Of a stretch of 64,000 nucleotides of DNA, positions 36,876 to 50,272 are shown piece by piece. Under the pieces are notes generated by a model that was given only the letters and a program-made list of their open reading frames with translations, searched no databases and was not told where the DNA came from. The position numbers and the translations under genes were made by a program. The DNA is from Myxococcota bacterium (lineage in GTDB: Bacteria; Myxococcota_A; UBA9160; UBA4427): assembly GCA_965250285.1 (NCBI GenBank), contig OZ252299.1, forward strand, positions 3,712,001 to 3,776,000, in the 5' to 3' direction. Within the stretch, counting starts at the first letter, position 1. Each line of letters opens with the position of its first letter.

Positions 36876-38357
36876 ATGACACTCACGCCGCAGTTCGAAG
36901 CGACCTACGCCCGACTCCCCGAGCGGTTCTTTGCTCGCCTGGCCCCGACGCCGGTCGCTGCACCGAGCCTCGTGAGGCTGAACGAGCCGCTGGCACGCGA
37001 GCTCGGCCTCGACCCCGAGCAACTCGCGTCCCCGGACGGCGTAGCGATGCTGGCGGGCAACGCCGTGCCCGAAGGCGCCGAGCCGATCGCGATGGCGTAC
37101 GCGGGGTTCCAGTTCGGCAACTGGACACCCCAGCTCGGCGATGGCCGCGCGATCCTGATCGGCGAGCGCGTCGGGGCCGACGGCGTGCGACGCGACGTCC
37201 AGCTCAAGGGCTCCGGACCGACGCCGTATTCGCGACGCGGCGACGGACGTGCCGCGCTCGGGCCGGTCCTGCGCGAGTACATCGTCAGCGAAGCGATGTG
37301 GGCGCTCGGTGTTCCGACGACCCGCTCGCTCGCGGCGGTCGCCACCGGCGAGTCGATCATGCGCGAACAGCCCGAGCCCGGCGCGGTACTGACGCGCGTG
37401 GCCGAGAGCCACGTGCGGGTCGGCACGTTTCAGCTGCTGGCGAGCCGCAGCGATGAAGAGGGGCTTCGCGCGCTCGCCGACTATGTCATCGAGCGCCACT
37501 TCCCCGAGGCGGCCGAGACCGAGCACCCCTACCTCACGATGTTCGAGACGGTGCTCGACCGGCAGGCCCGGCTCATCGCGCGCTGGCAGAGCATCGGCTT
37601 CATCCATGGCGTGATGAACACCGACAATACATCGGTCGTCGGTGAGACGATCGACTACGGCCCGTGCGCCTTCATGGACACGTTCGGCTACGACACGGTC
37701 TACAGCTCGATCGATCAGATGGGTCGCTACGCGTACGGCAATCAGCCCGCCATCGGCCAATGGAACCTGATGAGCTTCGCGAACGGCCTGCTGCCCGTGC
37801 TGGGCGCCTCGCAGGAGGAAGCAGTCGAACGCGCTCAGGGGGTGCTCGACCTGTACCCAGCCCGCTTCGACGCGGCGTATCGCGCGGGGTTCGACCGCAA
37901 GCTCGGGCTGAGCGGGCGCCGCGAGGGCGACGACGCCCTCGCAGATGACCTGCTCGAGATCATGGCCGCCCAGGGTGCGGACTTCACGCTCACGTTTCGC
38001 GGTCTCGGCGAGCTCGTCGAAGGCGCCGAGGGCCCCGACGAGGTCGTTCGCTCGCTCTTCGACGACCCTGCGGCGTTCGATGCGTGGGCCACGCGTTGGC
38101 GCGCGCGCCTCTCCGACGAGGCACGATCTTCGACCGAGATTCGGCGCGACATGGATGCCGTGAACCCCGTCTACATCCCGCGCAATCATCGCGTCGAAGA
38201 GGCAATTCGCGGCGCCGTCGACCGCGCTGACCTCGGCCCGTTCGAAGATCTCATCGCGGTGCTGTCGAAACCGTACGAGCGACAGCCCGGTCGCGAGCGG
38301 TACGAAGCGCCGCCGCGCCCCGACGAGGTGGTGCACGCGACCTTCTGCGGCACCTGA
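36876..38357 (+). CDS. selO: Protein adenylyltransferase SelO/YdiU
   Basis: [44 protein letters not shown]-terminal TFCGT. Confidence 0.93.
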
Positions 38358-41416: not shown

Positions 41417-42940
41417 TCACACCTCGCCGGAGTAGGCCTCGCAGAGATTCCAGAGGCGCGCGCGGTCTTCGTCGGATTCACGCGTCCACGGAAGGAGGTG
41501 CGTCTTTCGCGCACGGCGATCGAAGTAGAACCGACCGCTCTCGATCGTTTCGCTGTCGCTCGCCGCGAGCCACACGACCGTATCGGCCCCCTCCGCCGGC
41601 GAGCGCAGGATCGCCTCGGTGACCCGGTGAAAGGTGGGGAGCGACGAGGCGACGGCTGGGGTGTCGGCCCAGCCCGGGTGCATCGACGTCACGGTGACGC
41701 CCTCGGCCTCGAGTCGCTCGGCCCACATCTCGGCCAGCACGACCTGCGCGCGCTTCGTCTCGGCGTAGGCGAGCACGCCGTCGTAGTCGCGCCGCGACCA
41801 ATCGGGATCGTCGAGGTTCAGCGCTCGCGTGTACATCCCCCCGGACGAGACCCAGATCAAGCGACCATCGGACGACGCCGCGAGCCGGTTCTGGAGCATC
41901 CGCGTCAGCAGGTAGGGGCCGATGCAGTGCGTCGCCCAGGTCAGCTCGATGCGTTGCGGCGACAAGACGCGCATGTCGGGCAGCACCCCGGCGTTGTGCA
42001 CCAGCACGTCGACGGGCGACTCAGCCAGCCGCTTGCCCGCTGCACGCACCGAGTCGAGATCGCTCATGTCGACCACCTCGAGATGCACCGCCGCGTTGCC
42101 GGTGCGGGCCCGAATCTCTTCGACGGCGGCGCGCCCTCGCCCCTCGCTCCGGCAGAGCAATACGACCTCGGCACCGAGATCGGCCAGCGCCTCCGCGGTC
42201 GAGCGGCCGATGCCCGAGTTGGCGCCGCTCACGAGACATCGCCGTCCGCTGAGATCGACCTCGAGGTCGTCGGGCTCGAACGTGAGCGAGTGGATGCGAT
42301 AGCCGGTGCGATCGAATGAGCCGACGATCAGCGGGTCGACGACCCGCGAGAGCGCCTCGCCGACGATGCGCTGCGCGCGTGACACCTCGATGCGCTCGTC
42401 GAGGCTGGGTGCATCGCGATCGAGCGCCGCGAGAATGTCCTCCGGGCGGGCGTGGTCACCCGCGACCTCGCTTCGATGGCTGAACGTCAGGCGCCCACCG
42501 GGTTGGATCACGAAGGCGCCGCCGAGCTGCCAGGGGTCGCCCTGGACGCCTTCCTGGCGATGCCCCGCGGCCAGCGCGCGCCCGGCATTCACGGCGAGGC
42601 GCGGTGACAGCACCTCGACGCGGCCGCGCCGCAGCCCCGCGGCGCGATAGGCGCGCAGCTCGGGGTCGACCAGGAGCGGGCCCTCGAGTGCGAAATCCTC
42701 ACGAAACGCCTCGGCGAAGGAGCGAGCGCCGTTGCCGACGATGACCAGCTCGGCGCCTTGTTTTTGGATCTCGGGAAGGGCGTCGCGCAACTGCGCGACC
42801 TGCTCGCGGCAGAACAGTCAGCCGAAGTGGCGCAAGAAGACCAGGACCGCCGGGCGGTCACGCCAGTACGAGCCCAGCGCGAAGCGGTCGCCCGCCGCGT
42901 CTTCGAGCTCGATCGGCGTGAGTTGGCGCACGATGTCCAC
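41417..42940 (-). CDS. Selenoprotein: Prx-like (AhpC/TSA-2, SelL/SelU-related) UxxC domain fused to DHRS12-like SDR
   Basis: GTG 42940 with SD GGAG; in-frame TGA 42818-42820 in VFLRHFG-U-LFCRE; then LVDPE, QLGGAFV; SDR SGANSGIG, HNAG, YAETK, MHPGWADT. 507 aa. Confidence 0.85.
42782..42812 (-). promoter_or_regulatory. Candidate bacterial SECIS element
   Basis: Just 3' of UGA: CUGC(C)GCGA-GCAGG-UCGCGCAG hairpin; alternative GUCGCGC-AGUU-GCGCGAC. Confidence 0.5.
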
Positions 42941-43065
42941 GGTCGACTCCAGTCGGTGAACCAGGCAGATGCCGGCCGCGGCCCGAAGGTCACGCTCCGA
43001 CCCCCGGGCCGGCGCTGAGGATCGTCTCGAGCGCCGGGCCGCGGCGACGCGGCGAAGCAGCCGCT

Positions 43066-43239
43066 CTACGCCACGCGTCGCAGCCTTCGCGATCGCTCGC
43101 CGCGGCTGTGCTGCGCGCGGACCCGCACTTTGGCCGTCTGCGTGCGCGCCAGGTAGCGCTCACGCAGAAACACGTAGGCGCCGCCGAAGGCGATGAACGA
43201 GATCGCCACCCCGAACGTGAGGATCTGCATGTCATTCAT
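43066..43239 (-). CDS. Small single-TM protein (57 aa)
   Basis: SD GGGAG, overlaps upstream stop; ILTFGVAISFIAFGGAYVFLRE. Confidence 0.6.
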   Translation of the reverse strand: MNDMQILTFGVAISFIAFGGAYVFLRERYLARTQTAKVRVRAQHSRGERSRRLRRVA

Positions 43240-43468
43240 GGTCATGACTCCCGATGAGCAGGTTGGCGGCCGAGAGGATCGACGGGACCCAGAGTCCGAC
43301 GAAGATCCCCTCCTCGCGCTGACCAGCGAAGAAGAGGTAGACGGAGGCGGCGAGCGACAGGCCCGCAGCAAGAAAGAAGAGCGCCTTTGGCGTGGTGACC
43401 CCGAGCGCCGAATCGATCGCGGCATCCTCACGGTCTTCGCGCCGGACGTGCTGCACCTTCACCTCCAT
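43232..43468 (-). CDS. Small 2-TM protein (78 aa)
   Basis: SD GGAGGT; FFLAAGLSLAASVYLFF...EGIFVGLWVPSILS. Confidence 0.7.
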   Translation of the reverse strand: MEVKVQHVRREDREDAAIDSALGVTTPKALFFLAAGLSLAASVYLFFAGQREEGIFVGLWVPSILSAANLLIGSHDHE

Positions 43469-43589: not shown

Positions 43590-43613
43590 TTTGTTTAATA
43601 TTACTTGTTCAAA
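43590..43613. promoter_or_regulatory. AT-rich operator-like site A
   Basis: TTTGTTTAATATTACTTGTTCAAA; 17/24 match to reverse complement of 49036-49059. Confidence 0.55.
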
Positions 43614-43884: not shown

Positions 43885-45369
43885 TCAGACCTGGCCGCGC
43901 GTGAGCCCGCGCAACAATCGATCAGCCGTCTCGAGCGTCTCAGCCCGGTCCGCCAACCTGTCGAGGCTTCGAACGGCCATCGACGTACGGGGGTAGCGAC
44001 TCAACCGGTCGCGATGTCGGTCGACGAAGCGCCAGTAGAGCGCCGTCAGCGGGCACGCCGCGTCGCCGACGCGCCGCTTCGGATCGTACGCGCAGTCGCC
44101 GCAGTGATCGCTCATGCGGTTCATGTACGCGCCACCCGCCGCATACGGCTTGGACGCCATCTGTCCGCCGTCGGCGTGGAGCCCCATGCCGATCACGTTC
44201 GGCACCATCACCCACTCGGCCGCGTCGACGAAGCTGCGCTCCATCCACGCGAGCAGATCCAGCGGACGCACGTCGGCCAGAAGCCCGAGATTCGCGAGCA
44301 CCATCAAGCGCTCGATGTGATGCGCCCAGCCCCGCTCATGCACGTTGCCGACGGCGGCGCGCACGCAGGCCATCGATGTTCGAGCCGGATCTTCGAAGCT
44401 CGGCAGCAGCTTGCGCCGCGCACCCAGTGCGTTGAGGCTTCGGTAGTCGGGCATCCAGAGCCAGTAGACGCCCCAGACGTACTCACGCCAGCCCGCGATC
44501 TGACGAACGAAGCCCTCGGCGGATGCGATCGGGACGCGCCCTTCGCGGTAGGCGCGCTCGGCCGCCTCACAGACCTCTGCGGGATGCAGCAGCCCGATGT
44601 TGAGCGCCGGGCTCAGGAGCGCGTGGGCCAGATGCCACGACCGCGTCGTCATCGCATCCTGATGCGGGCCGAACTGCGGCAGGCAGTCGTCGACGAAGTG
44701 ACGCAGTCGCTTGAGCGCCGCGCGGCGCGAAGTGGGCCACCAGCCTTCGGGATCGGCTCCAAAGCCTGCTTGCCCGATCTCATCGAGCACCTCGCGATCG
44801 ATCGCGTCGAGCTGTGAGCGTACAGGCGCCGGCCAGACGCCCTCCTTCGGCGGGGGCTTTCGGTTCTCGGGGTCGAAGTTCCAGCGCCCGCCCGCCGGCT
44901 CGTCGCCATCCATCAAGTACCCGAGTCGGGCGCGCTGCCAGCGGTAGAAGTTCTCCATGCGCAGCGCGCCGCGGTCGTTGGCCCAGGCGCGAAATGCGTC
45001 GGGATGACACAGGAACTGGTCGTTGGCCACGAGCTCGACGCCCCAGTGCTCGAGCCGTTCGGCCGCGCCGAAGCGGCTCGGCTCCATCGCGACCACGCGC
45101 TCGGGAGCGTGCTGCGCCACATGCGCTTCGAAGCCGACGCGCATGCTGGTCGCCTTGCGATAGTCGACTTCGAAGCCCGCCCCTTCGAGCTCCGAAGCGA
45201 ATCGGCGCATCGCAGTCATGTAGAGATGAAGTCTCTGACGGTGCCAACGGTGGGCGCGAAGGCGGGCCTCGCTCTCGACGAGCAGCACGCGTGTATCGGC
45301 CGGGGTGCAATCGCGCAGCGAGGCGATCTGGCGGTTCAGCTGATCTCCCAGGATCCAGACGGTCTGCAT
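43885..45369 (-). CDS. Cryptochrome/photolyase, FeS-BCP (prokaryotic 6-4 photolyase-like)
   Basis: WILGDQL, RMENFYR, GGRWNFD, EGFVRQIAGWREY, HHIERLM, KPYAAGGAY; four Fe-S Cys (MAC, HCGDC, ACP). Confidence 0.92.
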   Translation of the reverse strand: MQTVWILGDQLNRQIASLRDCTPADTRVLLVESEARLRAHRWHRQRLHLYMTAMRRFASELEGAGFEVDYRKATSMRVGFEAHVAQHAPERVVAMEPSRFGAAERLEHWGVELVANDQFLCHPDAFRAWANDRGALRMENFYRWQRARLGYLMDGDEPAGGRWNFDPENRKPPPKEGVWPAPVRSQLDAIDREVLDEIGQAGFGADPEGWWPTSRRAALKRLRHFVDDCLPQFGPHQDAMTTRSWHLAHALLSPALNIGLLHPAEVCEAAERAYREGRVPIASAEGFVRQIAGWREYVWGVYWLWMPDYRSLNALGARRKLLPSFEDPARTSMACVRAAVGNVHERGWAHHIERLMVLANLGLLADVRPLDLLAWMERSFVDAAEWVMVPNVIGMGLHADGGQMASKPYAAGGAYMNRMSDHCGDCAYDPKRRVGDAACPLTALYWRFVDRHRDRLSRYPRTSMAVRSLDRLADRAETLETADRLLRGLTRGQV

Positions 45370-45438: not shown

Positions 45439-46215
45439 TCAGCGCTCGTCGGCGTCCCGCGACAGCTTGAGCTGCCCGAGCGCCTTGCGACGCAGGTAGG
45501 CGTACTGCTCGAGCAGCGGCAGCCCTTTCGGACAGACGTCGTGACAGCCCATCAGCCCCACGCAGCCGAACACACCCTGGTCGCTCGCGACGACGTCGAA
45601 CCAGTCGTCCTCGTCTCGGGCGTCCCGGGGATCGCGCATGAATCGCGCAATCCGATTCAGGCCGGCCGCTCCGACGAAGTCGTCGCGCACGTTCGCAACC
45701 CCGCAGCCGGCGATGCAGCAGCCGCACTCGATGCAGCGCTCACCCTCGTAGATCGCCTGGGCCAGCTCATCGTCCATTCGTTCTTCGACGGCCTCGGGAT
45801 CGAACGGCGCCTTCTCGTGCACCCAGGCACCGACGCGCTCGGCCATGTTTCGAAACCACGTGCCGGTATCCACCGAGAGATCGCCGACCATCTTGAAGAC
45901 AGGCAGCGGCTGCAGCCGAATCGTGTCGGGCAGGTCGCGGGTGAGCGTCTTGCAGGCGAGCGCCGGCCGACCGTTCACGACCATTCCGCACGAGCCACAG
46001 ATGGCCGACCGGCACGCAAAGTCGAACTGCAGGCTCGGGTCGAGTTCTTCACGGATCTCGTTGAGCGCCGTGTACAGGGTCATGTACGGCTTCTCGACCA
46101 GCTCGAACGTGTCGAAGCGCGGCTTCGAGTCGGGGGCTTCCGGGTTCAGTCGGAAGACTTCGAACACGAGGGTGCGGCCGACGTCGATCGAGACTTCTTG
46201 CACGATCATGGACAT
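45439..46215 (-). CDS. frdB: Fumarate reductase iron-sulfur subunit
   Basis: CRSAICGSC..C, CIECGCCIAGC, CVGLMGCHDVCPK; GDLSVDTG. Confidence 0.9.
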   Translation of the reverse strand: MSMIVQEVSIDVGRTLVFEVFRLNPEAPDSKPRFDTFELVEKPYMTLYTALNEIREELDPSLQFDFACRSAICGSCGMVVNGRPALACKTLTRDLPDTIRLQPLPVFKMVGDLSVDTGTWFRNMAERVGAWVHEKAPFDPEAVEERMDDELAQAIYEGERCIECGCCIAGCGVANVRDDFVGAAGLNRIARFMRDPRDARDEDDWFDVVASDQGVFGCVGLMGCHDVCPKGLPLLEQYAYLRRKALGQLKLSRDADER

Positions 46216-46232
46216 TCGATCACTCCTGCACG

Positions 46233-48200
46233 CTACTCGCTGCGCTGCGGCGGCGACGTGTGATCCGCCGAGTCTTGCCAGCGCCCCCACCGCATCCGGC
46301 TGCCCAGCGGTTCGGAAGGGTCAGGTGCACCGCCGGCGCCCCAGGCAGCGCCGACGGCGCGGTTGTAGTCCTCGATCGAGGACTCCATCCCGACGGTGAG
46401 ACTCTTGCCGTAGCCCCGGTCGCCCGGCGGCAGATCGATCAAGCCCACCGGCTCGTACGAGAGGCGGGCCGCGCCTTCGTCGTGGGACCAGTGGGCGAGT
46501 GTGCGGTTGAGCCAGCGATCGTCGTCCCGTGCCGGATGGTCGGTTCGGTAGTGGGCACCGCGGCACTCCGTACGAGCGAGGGCGCCCTGCGCGGTGATCA
46601 GCGCGAGGCGCGCCATGCCCTCGAGGCGCAGCGCGAACGTGAGCTCGGGGTTCGCGCCGGGCGCCTTCGAACGCAGGGCCGCACGGCCGACCAGCGCGAG
46701 CTGCCCTTCGATCTCCTTCGTCGCCTGCTCGAGCTCTTCACCGTTGCGAAAGACGCCGACCTTGTGATTGAGCGTCTCGGCGATCGCGTCGCGAATCGCG
46801 TACACGGTCGGGCCATCGGCGGATCGCTCGAGCCAATCCACGAGCCGGCGGTCGACGTCGTGGTGGAACGCATGCGCGACGGCCGTGTCGAGGGCGAGCG
46901 ACGTCTGCGACGCGAACTCGGCCACGTGGCGCCCGACGAAGCGTCCGGCGACCACCGTCTCGGCGAGGCTGTTGCCGCCGAGCCGATTGAAGCCGTGCAG
47001 ATCCCAGCAGGCCGCCTCACCGACGGCGAAGAGACCGCGCAGGCCGTAGGCCTCGCCGTGCTTGTTGACGCGCACACCGCCCATCGAATAGTGCTGGATC
47101 GGCCGCACCGGGATCGGCTCGCGCGCCGGATCGAGGCCGTTGAAGTCGCGACAGATGTCCCAGACCTCGCGCAGCTTCGTTCGCAGATGCTGCTCACCGA
47201 GATGTCGAAGATCGAGCCACAGGTGCTGGCCCGCGTCGCTCTCGACGCCACGCCCATCCTTGATCTCGGCCATCATGTGGCGCGAAACGACGTCGCGGCT
47301 CGCCAGCTCCTGCTTCTCGGGCTCGGCACGCACCATGAAGCGCTCGCCCTGGGTGTTGAGCAGATACCCCCCGTCCCCGCGACAGCCTTCGGTCACGAGA
47401 ATGCCGCTCGGGACGAGCCCGGTCGGGTGAAACTGCACAGCCTCCATGTTGCCGAGCGGAACGACACCGGTATCGAGCGCGAGCGAGGCGCCAGTGCCCT
47501 CGTTGATCGTTGCGTTGGTCGTGTAGCGACCGTAGATGCGGCCGTGGCCCCCGGTCGCGACGACTGTCGCCTTGGCGACGAAGGAGGTCAGCGCGCCGGT
47601 GCGCAGGCATCGGGTCACGGCGCCCCAGCAGCGGCCAGCGTCGTGGATCAGCGAGAGCGCCTCGATGCGATCGATCACGCGAATGCCGAGGCGCACGACC
47701 TCGCCATCGACGGCGTACAGAACGGCGTGGCCCGTGCCCGCCGACGCGTAGCAGGCGCGCCACTTCGCGGTCCCGCCGAAGTTGCGGTGCATGATCAGGC
47801 CGGCCTTCTCGTCGGGCTCGTCGATCTCGACCTTCTGCCCCTTGACGAAGTAGGTGTTTCGGCCGGGGCGCACGCGCGTCCAGGGCACGCCCCAATGCGC
47901 GAGCTCGCGCACGGCGACGGGCGCCTCTTCACTGAAGATCCAGGCGACCTCCTGGTCGGCGCCCCAGTCGGATCCACGCACGGTGTCGAGGAAGTGCAGC
48001 GTCGGGTCGTCGCCCTCGGCCTTCACGCAGTTGCCGAGTGCCGCCTGCATCCCGCCTTGGGCGGCGCAGCTGTGGCTGCGGCGCGGCGGCACGAGTGAGA
48101 GCAGCGTGACGTCGTGCCCCGCGACTGCGGCCTCGATGGCGCAACGTTCACCGGCCAGCCCGCCGCCGATCACGAGGACGTCGGTCGATCGCAGGTCCAT
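46233..48200 (-). CDS. frdA: Fumarate reductase flavoprotein subunit
   Basis: DVLVIGGGLAG, RRSHSCAAQGG (covalent FAD His), QFHPT, TEGCRGDGG, RDVVSR, HYSMGG, NRLGGNSL, PPGDRGYG. Confidence 0.92.
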   Translation of the reverse strand: MDLRSTDVLVIGGGLAGERCAIEAAVAGHDVTLLSLVPPRRSHSCAAQGGMQAALGNCVKAEGDDPTLHFLDTVRGSDWGADQEVAWIFSEEAPVAVRELAHWGVPWTRVRPGRNTYFVKGQKVEIDEPDEKAGLIMHRNFGGTAKWRACYASAGTGHAVLYAVDGEVVRLGIRVIDRIEALSLIHDAGRCWGAVTRCLRTGALTSFVAKATVVATGGHGRIYGRYTTNATINEGTGASLALDTGVVPLGNMEAVQFHPTGLVPSGILVTEGCRGDGGYLLNTQGERFMVRAEPEKQELASRDVVSRHMMAEIKDGRGVESDAGQHLWLDLRHLGEQHLRTKLREVWDICRDFNGLDPAREPIPVRPIQHYSMGGVRVNKHGEAYGLRGLFAVGEAACWDLHGFNRLGGNSLAETVVAGRFVGRHVAEFASQTSLALDTAVAHAFHHDVDRRLVDWLERSADGPTVYAIRDAIAETLNHKVGVFRNGEELEQATKEIEGQLALVGRAALRSKAPGANPELTFALRLEGMARLALITAQGALARTECRGAHYRTDHPARDDDRWLNRTLAHWSHDEGAARLSYEPVGLIDLPPGDRGYGKSLTVGMESSIEDYNRAVGAAWGAGGAPDPSEPLGSRMRWGRWQDSADHTSPPQRSE

Positions 48201-48205
48201 CGCAG

Positions 48206-48997
48206 CTACCCCTTCAGCAGGAAGGCGAGCGGCGGATCGGCCCACCCGGCCAGCACGACGAGCGTGACGGCGCCGAGGCCGAGAAAGCCGACGAGCAGCA
48301 CGCGCTCGATTCGGAGCAGGGTGCGACGACCCAGCCGGGCCCCGATGCCCCACTTCACGGCAAAGCGATAGAGCCCGACGCTCGCATGGAATTCGACGCA
48401 GAGCAGAAGTACGGCGTAGACGACCCAGAGCCCTGCCCCCACCCGGGCCTGCGACGTCGCCGCCTCGATCCCCGTGCGCTCGCCGAACAGCGGCGTCAGC
48501 ACGTCGACGGCGACCAGCACCAGATGGAAGCTGCCCAACACGAGCAGCGTCATGCCCGTCCAGACCTGCCAGAGCCAGAGAGACGACTCGACATGCGGCG
48601 TGTAGCCCGTGCCGCGTGCCTTCAGCTCGTCGCCGAGAGCGCGCAGCCGCCTTCGCTCGCGAATCTGGGCGGGGATCTTGCGGCTCGCGAGGGCGGCGTG
48701 CGTGAGAAAGAGCGCCGAGATCGCAAACACGGTTGGCTGCGCGATGTAGACGTGCTCGAGCCCCGACGCGAGCCAGTCGAAGCCGCGCGCGCCCGTGAGG
48801 ATCGAGCCCACCAGCACCATGTGGCCCCACATGAAGAAGGCCAGTCCCACCCCCGAGAGGCCACTGGCCAGCTCGTACACGAGCTGGCGCTGGGCCTCCC
48901 GGCGGAGAGACGTTGCCCCCGCCCGCCGCTGCCAGGGGAGAGGGGATGCGCGGCGGGCGGGGGGTGAAGTGCGGTCCTGGGGGGTGGCAGCTGCCAT
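48206..48997 (-). CDS. frdC: Fumarate reductase diheme cytochrome b anchor (5-TM, type B)
   Basis: SGLSG..FFMWGHM, LTHAALA.RKIP, WLWQVWTG..FHL, VEFHASVGLYRFAVKWG (four His ligands). Confidence 0.88.
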   Translation of the reverse strand: MAAATPQDRTSPPARRASPLPWQRRAGATSLRREAQRQLVYELASGLSGVGLAFFMWGHMVLVGSILTGARGFDWLASGLEHVYIAQPTVFAISALFLTHAALASRKIPAQIRERRRLRALGDELKARGTGYTPHVESSLWLWQVWTGMTLLVLGSFHLVLVAVDVLTPLFGERTGIEAATSQARVGAGLWVVYAVLLLCVEFHASVGLYRFAVKWGIGARLGRRTLLRIERVLLVGFLGLGAVTLVVLAGWADPPLAFLLKG

Positions 48998-49237: not shown

Positions 49238-50272
49238 ATGACCCCGCAGCCCCAGGGACCGTCCAATGGAGGGGGAGCACACGTGGCCCAGCAGGATCCC
49301 GATCAGTCGCTGTATCGCGTCGGCACGGCGGCGCAGCTGAGCGGCGTGCCGCCGGCCACCATCCGTGCCTGGGAGCGGCGGTACGGTGCCGTCGACCCGA
49401 AGCGATCCGAGACCGGGCGGCGACTCTACGACGATGAAGACGTCGCGCGGCTGCAGTTGATGAAGGCGCTGACGGATGTCGGCGATCCGATCAGTGCGAT
49501 CGCCAACCTCGATTATGCCGAGCTCCGCGATCGACTCGATCGCCACGCTGCCCGGCCCCAGCCCATCGACGGCGATTCGACGATGGCGACGCGGGTTGCC
49601 CTACTCGACCCCGAGATCGAGGAGCAGATCCGCGCGAACCCCGGCGACTTCTCGCCGCTCGAGGTCGCCGGGGCGGATGGCTCGATCGACTCGTTCATCG
49701 AGCGGCTGCCGGGCATGCAGGCCGACGCGCTCGTCATGCACATCGACCGACTCGGCCCCGACCCGGTGACCGCCGTCGATCAGGCGCTCAAGGCGGCCGG
49801 CGCGAACGTGGCGGTCGTCCTCTACCACTTTGCCGCTGCGCCCACCCTGCGGCGACTCGCCGATCGAGGCGTGCGGCTGCTCATGCTGCCGACGCGCGTC
49901 TCGTCGCTTCGACGCACGATCCGCGACTTCATCGACATCCGCCGGGCGACGGCGGTCCGCGACGCCCTCATCGCGATCGAGTCGCGCGCACCGGATGACC
50001 GCGCGTCGGCGGCCGCCGAGCGACGCTTCACCGATGCCCAGCTGGCCCGGCTGCAAGAGATCACCAGCTCGGTGGAGTGCGAGTGTCCGAGCAACCTGTC
50101 GGGTGTGATCAAGAGCCTGGTCGCGTTCGAGCGCTACAGCAGCCAGTGCGTGAGCGACAGCCCCCGAGACGCCGAGCTGCACCGGGCGCTCGAACGCGGC
50201 ACCGGCCACGCCCGCGCGCTCATGGAAGAGCTGCTCATGCGCGTCTGCGAGCACGACGGGCTGACGATCTGA
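49238..50272 (+). CDS. MerR family regulator with Cys-rich C-terminal domain
   Basis: SD GAGGAGG (alternative GTG 49283); YRVGTAAQLSGV..TIRAWERRYG..P.RS..GRRLY; C-terminal CECP..L...FERYS.QC...LH. Confidence 0.9.
   Translation: MTPQPQGPSNGGGAHVAQQDPDQSLYRVGTAAQLSGVPPATIRAWERRYGAVDPKRSETGRRLYDDEDVARLQLMKALTDVGDPISAIANLDYAELRDRLDRHAARPQPIDGDSTMATRVALLDPEIEEQIRANPGDFSPLEVAGADGSIDSFIERLPGMQADALVMHIDRLGPDPVTAVDQALKAAGANVAVVLYHFAAAPTLRRLADRGVRLLMLPTRVSSLRRTIRDFIDIRRATAVRDALIAIESRAPDDRASAAAERRFTDAQLARLQEITSSVECECPSNLSGVIKSLVAFERYSSQCVSDSPRDAELHRALERGTGHARALMEELLMRVCEHDGLTI

Follow-up and report, generated by a model that had tools for sequence, protein, structure and literature searches.

The gene on the minus strand at positions 41417–42940 of the window (the whole stretch of 64,000 nucleotides that was analysed) is, judged from its sequence and that of its relatives, a real and mis-annotated selenoprotein fusion in which two known domain families are joined in an architecture not found in the literature searched. 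An in-frame UGA at codon 41 is almost certainly decoded as selenocysteine (Sec), placing this residue at the first redox position of a thioredoxin-fold domain that continues into an SDR. The gene constitutes neither a new decoding mechanism nor a new fold. The features that define its reading frame are the following.

41417..42940, minus strand: full gene for a 507-aa Sec-containing SelL-related/SDR fusion (GTG start, TGA stop), from translation with TGA read as U.
42947..42950, minus strand: Shine-Dalgarno-like GGAG, 6 nt upstream of GTG 42940.
42818..42820, minus strand: in-frame TGA, codon 41, predicted Sec (UxxC with Cys44), from TGA in all 40 fused loci, Cys in the ortholog P0014 and alignment to Cys44 of PRXL2B.
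42782..42799, minus strand: bacterial SECIS hairpin GTCGCGC-AGTT-GCGCGAC within the coding sequence, from pairing, covariation and loop-codon conservation.

Translation with TGA as U yields 507 residues and a stop, codon 41 being the sole internal TGA, in the context VFLRHFG-U-LFCREQVAQLRD. This bears out an earlier note made from the letters of the window, which had extended the frame to the GTG behind a Shine-Dalgarno word and located a single TGA exactly at the first redox position of RHFG-U-LF-C. Codons 1–40 are coding-like (GC3 0.93). Among the 21 fusion loci listed, 17 have a start 40 codons upstream of the TGA, and four have candidate starts 38–56 codons upstream of it. The mechanical ORF opens at TTG 42790, upstream of which no Shine-Dalgarno-like word was found. 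Since the hairpin loop contains this TTG, and since Leu51 is encoded by TTG in 21 of 21 fusion genes (TTG accounts for 5.6% of their other Leu codons), the false start is the SECIS loop itself. Database proteins are affected alike: 119 of the 120 best protein hits begin after the TGA and are devoid of the first residues and the active-site motif, while the remaining one, P0014, is full length and carries a natural Cys at the Sec position. As to an assembly error, which the earlier note had considered, contigs from three runs of one study (X1–X3, of which X1 is possibly the window's own source) cover the TGA and the linker with no differences.

The machinery for Sec insertion, which the earlier note had proposed to look for, is complete in the source genome: selA, selB, selD and tRNA-Sec (selC) are all encoded and score above their family cut-offs. 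The tRNA-Sec (62.6 bits) was accepted on the default ARAGORN call and Rfam only; a relaxed ARAGORN threshold gave many spurious tRNA-Sec calls. Sec machinery was likewise detected in all 21 fusion genomes, selB in 18 and selA in the other three. The alternation of Cys and TGA at codon 41, also foreseen, was found as well, with TGA in the fusions and Cys in P0014, in the Cys paralogs and in PRXL2B.

The hairpin lies 18 nt downstream of the TGA; it was judged by the usual rule for the loop G and the spacing of bacterial SECIS elements. Folded alone, it is no better than shuffled sequences (z −0.41 to −1.71), so that the stem-loop cited in the earlier note as a Sec signature is borne out only through its conservation in relatives. 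Across 23 sequences, 98.8% of cells are paired and two pairs have changed on both sides in a compensatory manner. In a shuffle control, inflated by the relatedness of the sequences, none of 500 alignments matched the pairing or covariation score and 32 of 500 matched the two-sided pair count. None of the 266 codon windows scored shows stronger synonymous conservation than the SECIS codons, and the loop core occurs in all 40 fusions and in 14 of 15 Sec genes that stand alone but in none of 14 Cys paralogs. That the TGA instead terminates translation, marks a pseudogene or stems from misassembly, with the protein beginning at TTG 42790, would accord with the annotated starts of the 119 database hits and with a hairpin that is not significant by itself, but it is exceedingly improbable in view of the same-codon TGA at 40 of 40 loci, the conserved residues upstream of it, the Cys ortholog, the SECIS covariation, the identical contigs and a TTG that has no Shine-Dalgarno word and sits inside the hairpin loop. 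A reading of UGA as Trp was rejected, as TGA doubles as the stop codon here and in most loci.

The protein is divided into two domains and a linker.

42425..42919, minus strand: thioredoxin-fold SelL-related/PRXL2-like redox domain, aa 8–172, from NF040769, PF13911 and PDB 9us9.
42374..42424, minus strand: linker, about aa 173–189, of variable sequence and near-fixed length, from the GDH-to-DP distance and a start-codon scan.
41420..42373, minus strand: SDR domain with an N-terminal helical extension, SGANSGIG (238–245), R264, S366, Y392–K396, and His338 at the presumed tetrad Asn site.

The N-terminal domain matches the NCBIfam family NF040769 ('SelL-related redox protein') with 142.6 bits at a cut-off of 120, over model positions 4–172 of 173, and also Pfam PF13911 (AhpC-TSA_2). 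Both of its PDB sequence matches are human PRXL2B (9us9, E 2.6e-13). The R-x-F-G-C/U-x-x-C-R motif is present within the thioredoxin fold, RHFGULFCR of the fusion aligning with RRFGCVVCR of PRXL2B such that Sec occupies the position of the nucleophile, Cys44. The earlier assignment to AhpC/TSA-2 and to the SelU/SelL-related proteins thus stands at the family level, but the domain is not a peroxiredoxin proper: the peroxidatic motif PxxxTxxC/U, given for AhpC/BCP in the accessible part of PMC13188914, is absent from the N-domain (FLRHFGULFC), which by sequence is SelL-related and closest to human PRXL2B. Stand-alone Sec and Cys members of the NF040769/PF13911 family are also present in relatives, and the NF040769 model spans the 173-position domain only, whereas here an SDR of about 320 aa follows. 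PRXL2B (FAM213B, prostamide/prostaglandin F synthase) shares the aligned motif but differs in being a Cys-containing, single-domain protein with an eicosanoid substrate; the activity of the bacterial domain is a prediction. According to the sections of PMC12938796 available, the CxxC of PRXL2B reduces the endoperoxide of PGH2, and the enzyme is NADPH-dependent, NADPH keeping the CxxC reduced. Another NF040769 subfamily, with the motif HRHL-[HR]-U-LPC and a similar CAGTTG loop (L137:1500-1995 and L138:1500-2001), outscores the fusion on the NF040769 model.

In the C-terminal half, Pfam adh_short matches aa 236–432, and a classical SDR extends over residues 229–477. The Ser-Tyr-Lys set is kept (Y392-x3-K396 corresponding to YAETK), the motifs are of the NADPH type (R264 after beta-2), and none of the residues G239, G243, G245, R264, S366, Y392 and K396 varies among the 23 fused SDR rows. 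What had been called an intact NAD(P)-binding SDR is therefore intact in its Gly-rich motif and its Ser-Tyr-Lys residues but not in its tetrad, where Asn is replaced by His338. Position 338 is taken as the tetrad Asn site on the basis of SDR motifs. All 23 fused rows have His there. Of the 55 rows counted as unfused, 42 have Asn and 12 have His, one of the latter being L078, which is actually fused. AlphaFold2 predicts both folds with a mean pLDDT of 84.7 and a low-confidence linker, and in a Foldseek search the 40 rows listed are all of SDR type, protochlorophyllide reductases leading and 3rd5 among the near structures. With DHRS12-type classical SDRs the domain shares the Rossmann fold, a TGxxxGIG-type motif, the Arg after beta-2, YxxxK and HPGW, from which it differs by the His in place of the tetrad Asn and by the N-terminal Sec domain. 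The label DHRS12 (SDR40C) derives from JGI names of hits only, and no substrate is given for the DHRS12-type family in the literature listing. Of 150 representatives listed for the same SDR family, 22 long ones were scanned, and 14 of these carry the SDR joined to SRPBCC, a lipid-binding domain. In one protein record each (P0241, P0140), the family is apparently combined with a CarH-like HTH/B12 protein and with DUF2878.

The GDH-to-DP distance across the linker is 40–42 aa in all 36 measurable loci of the 40, and 41 aa in 31 of these 36. No conserved internal start for the SDR was found, Shine-Dalgarno-linked start codons occurring scattered in five of 36 loci, so that the SDR would be made only via read-through of the UGA.

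The earlier note had asked whether the fusion recurs. Of the 61 genomes searched, 21, the source genome included, gave a match over the full length that was interrupted by a single TGA, in every case at the same codon. A GTDB scan, for which 80 of 594 confirmed loci were kept, contributed 23 fusions, all with the TGA. After removal of four duplicates, the distinct fusion loci number 40, and the TGA accompanies the fusion in 40 of 40. Record titles of the fused loci refer mostly to Myxococcota or Deltaproteobacteria MAGs, a few bearing other submitter labels. Among 300 genomes sampled from the phylum, matches crossing the linker were confined to the window's own class; in the other classes with matches, only the N-domain was present, nearly always with TGA, and the ten loci checked proved to be stand-alone. 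A long open frame in G234 was rejected as a fusion. In a quick tree, the fused SDRs form one clade (SH-aLRT 97; L078 is labelled as solo there but is fused). Two stand-alone Sec domains (L051, L052) are nested among the fusions, a position which suggests that these arose by secondary loss of the SDR. Because of such nested stand-alone domains and of the stand-alone forms common in the phylum, the fusion must be regarded as dispensable. L095 and L190, from two other lineages, encode the same SDR next to a Sec domain as two unfused genes in the reverse order, the SDR gene coming first.

In the window, several features upstream of the fusion bear on its regulation.

43066..43468, minus strand: two small hydrophobic ORFs (78 and 57 aa), upstream of the fusion and probably in the same operon, from codon-trained gene calling.
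43592..43611, minus strand: AT-rich site TGAACA-N8-TAAACA upstream of the small-gene operon, a possible LitR-type operator, the pattern having been defined after the site was seen.
43885..45369, minus strand: photolyase-related (DPRP) gene, a light-regulon marker, from PF04244.
49283..50272, plus strand: MerR regulator with the CarH/LitR RxWERRY helix, class II LitR-like, from the motif; no Pfam B12-binding domain.

Homologues of the 78- and 57-aa ORFs occur near five and four, respectively, of the 40 fusion loci, this locus included. These small hydrophobic proteins, for which no Pfam match was found, recur upstream of the fusion or of a stand-alone SDR in several genomes. A scan for sigma-70 promoters gave no site. 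Within the genome, the operator variant with 14-nt spacing, defined post hoc, matches at four AT-rich positions, and one of these lies about 2 kb from a photolyase. Between the LitR-like regulator and the photolyase-related gene, and divergent from the former, lies a succinate dehydrogenase/fumarate reductase operon (45439–48880, minus strand), and 3 kb downstream of the fusion a SelO-family adenylyltransferase is encoded (36876–38357, plus strand), its called ORF being free of internal TGA.

At related loci the neighbours comprise B12-binding CarH, photolyase, CFA-type methyltransferases, UfaD- and UfaO-like proteins, DUF2867, ABC1 kinase, FolE, BLUF and fasciclin. CarH-like genes are found in 19 of 21 fusion genomes versus 12 of 40 others, and photolyase in 18 of 21 versus 16 of 40; selB, used as a control, displays no comparable split (18 of 21 versus 32 of 40). 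The trend for CarH and photolyase persists among genomes of at least 5 Mb, although kin are not independent. Owing to this non-independence and to the larger size of the fusion genomes (5.5 vs 4.4 Mb), the p-values for co-occurrence are overstated. Of the other fusion loci, 15 of 39 have a light marker nearby, as do 20 of 57 loci with a stand-alone SDR, compared with five of 357 genome tiles, as counted by tblastn with queries from the source genome only, the codon-trained caller having missed genes in L180; a previous count (15 of 40 loci versus two of 119 tiles) was partly circular. On the other hand, no light marker was found nearby at 24 of the 39 other fusion loci, among them that of the same-genus genome G001, and neither CarH nor photolyase was found in the fusion genome G013.

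A palindrome TGTnnA-N9-TnnACA with an AT-rich spacer is located upstream in ten of the 40 loci, in L064 at 112 nt before the start, and two further loci have hits elsewhere that are not AT-rich. It also occurs at the CarH/ufa cluster of the source genome but is absent from the window, whose own upstream site does not match it. In the accessible sections of PMC9304148, both the RxWERRY helix and the operator word TnnACA are described for CarH/LitR. The spacing of the palindrome (15 nt) differs from the published operators, which in the parts of these reports available consist of 11-bp repeats and N12 sites; tandem 11-bp CarH repeats are not enriched upstream of the fusion operons. As far as the available portions extend, the CarH/LitR regulons of PMC9304148 and PMC9758184 share with these loci photolyase, a UfaM-like methyltransferase, an FAD oxidoreductase, FolE, RudS, an SDR and TnnACA words, and the neighbourhood resembles the light-inducible clusters of PMC9758184 and PMC11417400; no selenoprotein was seen in the regulons as covered in those portions of PMC9304148 and PMC9758184. 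Taken together, this context, which is enriched but partial, points to membership of the fusion in a CarH/LitR light-stress regulon in a good part of the lineage. The source genome harbors a second light-stress cluster (G000:C1:4304300-4311368; L136:9306-16369), in which a CarH-like regulator is divergent from an operon encoding a methyltransferase, a UfaD-like protein, UfaO/DUF1365, a Cys-containing SelL-related paralog and RudS (TudS-DUF1722); the cluster also contains the palindromic site TGTCAAG-N7-CTTGACA. Directly behind ufaD-ufaO in the source genome lies this Cys paralog of the N-domain (32% identical).

The lipid-peroxidation clean-up proposed in the earlier note is a role that we, too, infer, backed by a neighbourhood of CarH/LitR regulators, photolyases and furan-fatty-acid genes. 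On balance, we lean towards a light-stress-induced, two-domain selenoenzyme whose UxxC domain would reduce lipid peroxides and whose NADPH-type SDR would reduce lipid carbonyls. SelB, docked on the hairpin, would insert Sec41; if selenium is lacking, translation would end at residue 40, leaving the SDR unmade. Under light or singlet-oxygen stress, repression of the gene by CarH/LitR-type proteins would be lifted in a good part of the lineage. Sec41 may attack a lipid endo- or hydroperoxide, by analogy to Cys44 of PRXL2B and PGH2, whereupon Cys44 of the fusion would resolve it to a Se–S bond that the cellular thioredoxin system could re-reduce. Finally, the SDR would use NADPH to reduce the aldehydes or ketones arising from that lipid damage. 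The chemistry of PRXL2B, the SRPBCC-fused kin of the SDR and the light-stress context make this two-step clean-up of photo-oxidised lipids the most likely function. A partnership of the two activities is also supported by the side-by-side SDR and Sec genes of L095 and L190 and by the single clade of fused SDRs. A bolder version, which we advance only tentatively and consider doubtful, is a selenium-gated, light-induced lipid repair on one chain, in which a bacterial Sec counterpart of prostaglandin F synthase would reduce endoperoxides of the membrane, such as those that singlet oxygen may form from furan fatty acids, and pass the resulting carbonyl to its own NADPH reductase.

It seems rather unlikely, by comparison, that two light-regulon enzymes with unrelated substrates are merely co-regulated and were joined by one chance fusion, the N-domain acting as a protein thiol-disulfide reductase. 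Such a history would fit a tree that requires just one origin, the secondary loss of the SDR half, the other partners of the SDR family (SRPBCC, DUF2878, CarH) and the variable linker sequence; it is at odds with the near-fixed linker length (41 aa in 31 of 36 loci), with the adjacency of the same two unfused genes in two other lineages and with the retention of the fusion across several families.

The reaction of singlet oxygen with a furan ring yields an endoperoxide. A recycling of furan fatty acids (FuFA), in which the Sec domain would reduce the furan endoperoxide made by singlet oxygen and the SDR the ring-opened dicarbonyl, is conceivable, if improbable. DUF1365 (UfaO-like) is present in 11 of 21 fusion genomes versus seven of 40 others, ufaD/ufaO-like genes lie near five of 39 other fusion loci, the Cys paralog follows ufaD-ufaO as described above, and 9M5-FuFA is lost under singlet oxygen according to the accessible part of PMC7380195. 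Yet DUF1365 was not found in ten of the 21 fusion genomes, and the ufa operon of the source genome holds the paralog rather than the fusion.

SDRs are flavin-free and are known to transfer hydride to carbon, which counts against a self-sufficient peroxidase whose SDR would use NADPH to re-reduce the Se–S bond directly, in place of thioredoxin reductase. This arrangement, which we judge very unlikely, would fit the His in place of Asn in all fused SDRs and would parallel the NADPH dependence attributed to PRXL2B in the available text of PMC12938796, but the Ser-Tyr-Lys residues that serve carbonyl chemistry are all retained and the His recurs among the rows counted as unfused (12 of 55, including the mislabelled fusion L078).

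No description of a SelL-related/SDR fusion was found in the open-access literature searched, which leaves room for a listing in supplementary tables. NF040769 and the SDR fusion are absent from the full table of 119 prokaryotic selenoprotein families in the 2026 inventory PMC13188914, and neither was found in the accessible sections of PMC2398784. The Prx-like UxxC selenoproteins listed there (Table 1 of PMC13188914; PMC2398784) are likewise thioredoxin-fold UxxC proteins, some of them fused to other domains. Elsewhere in the source genome, three thioredoxin-fold genes with an in-frame TGA in W-U-P-x-C (G000:C1:1311589-1311888, 2346317-2346613 and 3873756-3874031; L023, L024, L025) are likely further hidden selenoproteins split by gene callers. 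SelD (G000:C1:5312234-5313154, L010) is of the Cys type (CGGCAAK) and belongs to a 749-aa ORF whose N-terminal portion is oxidoreductase-like, an arrangement similar to the Ndh-SelD fusion described in the available portion of PMC2398784.

The fusion exposes a systematic annotation error, given that 119 of its 120 closest database proteins are missing the first residues and the active site, and it adds a domain architecture that the family table of the 2026 selenoprotein inventory does not contain. The natural Cys ortholog P0014 eases expression and assay. Should the bolder, one-chain version hold, a selenoprotein would operate within CarH/LitR photoprotection, and a substrate class would become available for two orphan families, the PRXL2/SelU-like and the DHRS12-like proteins. 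The fusion also connects, in the manner of a Rosetta stone, two families that have human members but are poorly understood, and it suggests photo-oxidised lipids as a substrate class that can be tested.
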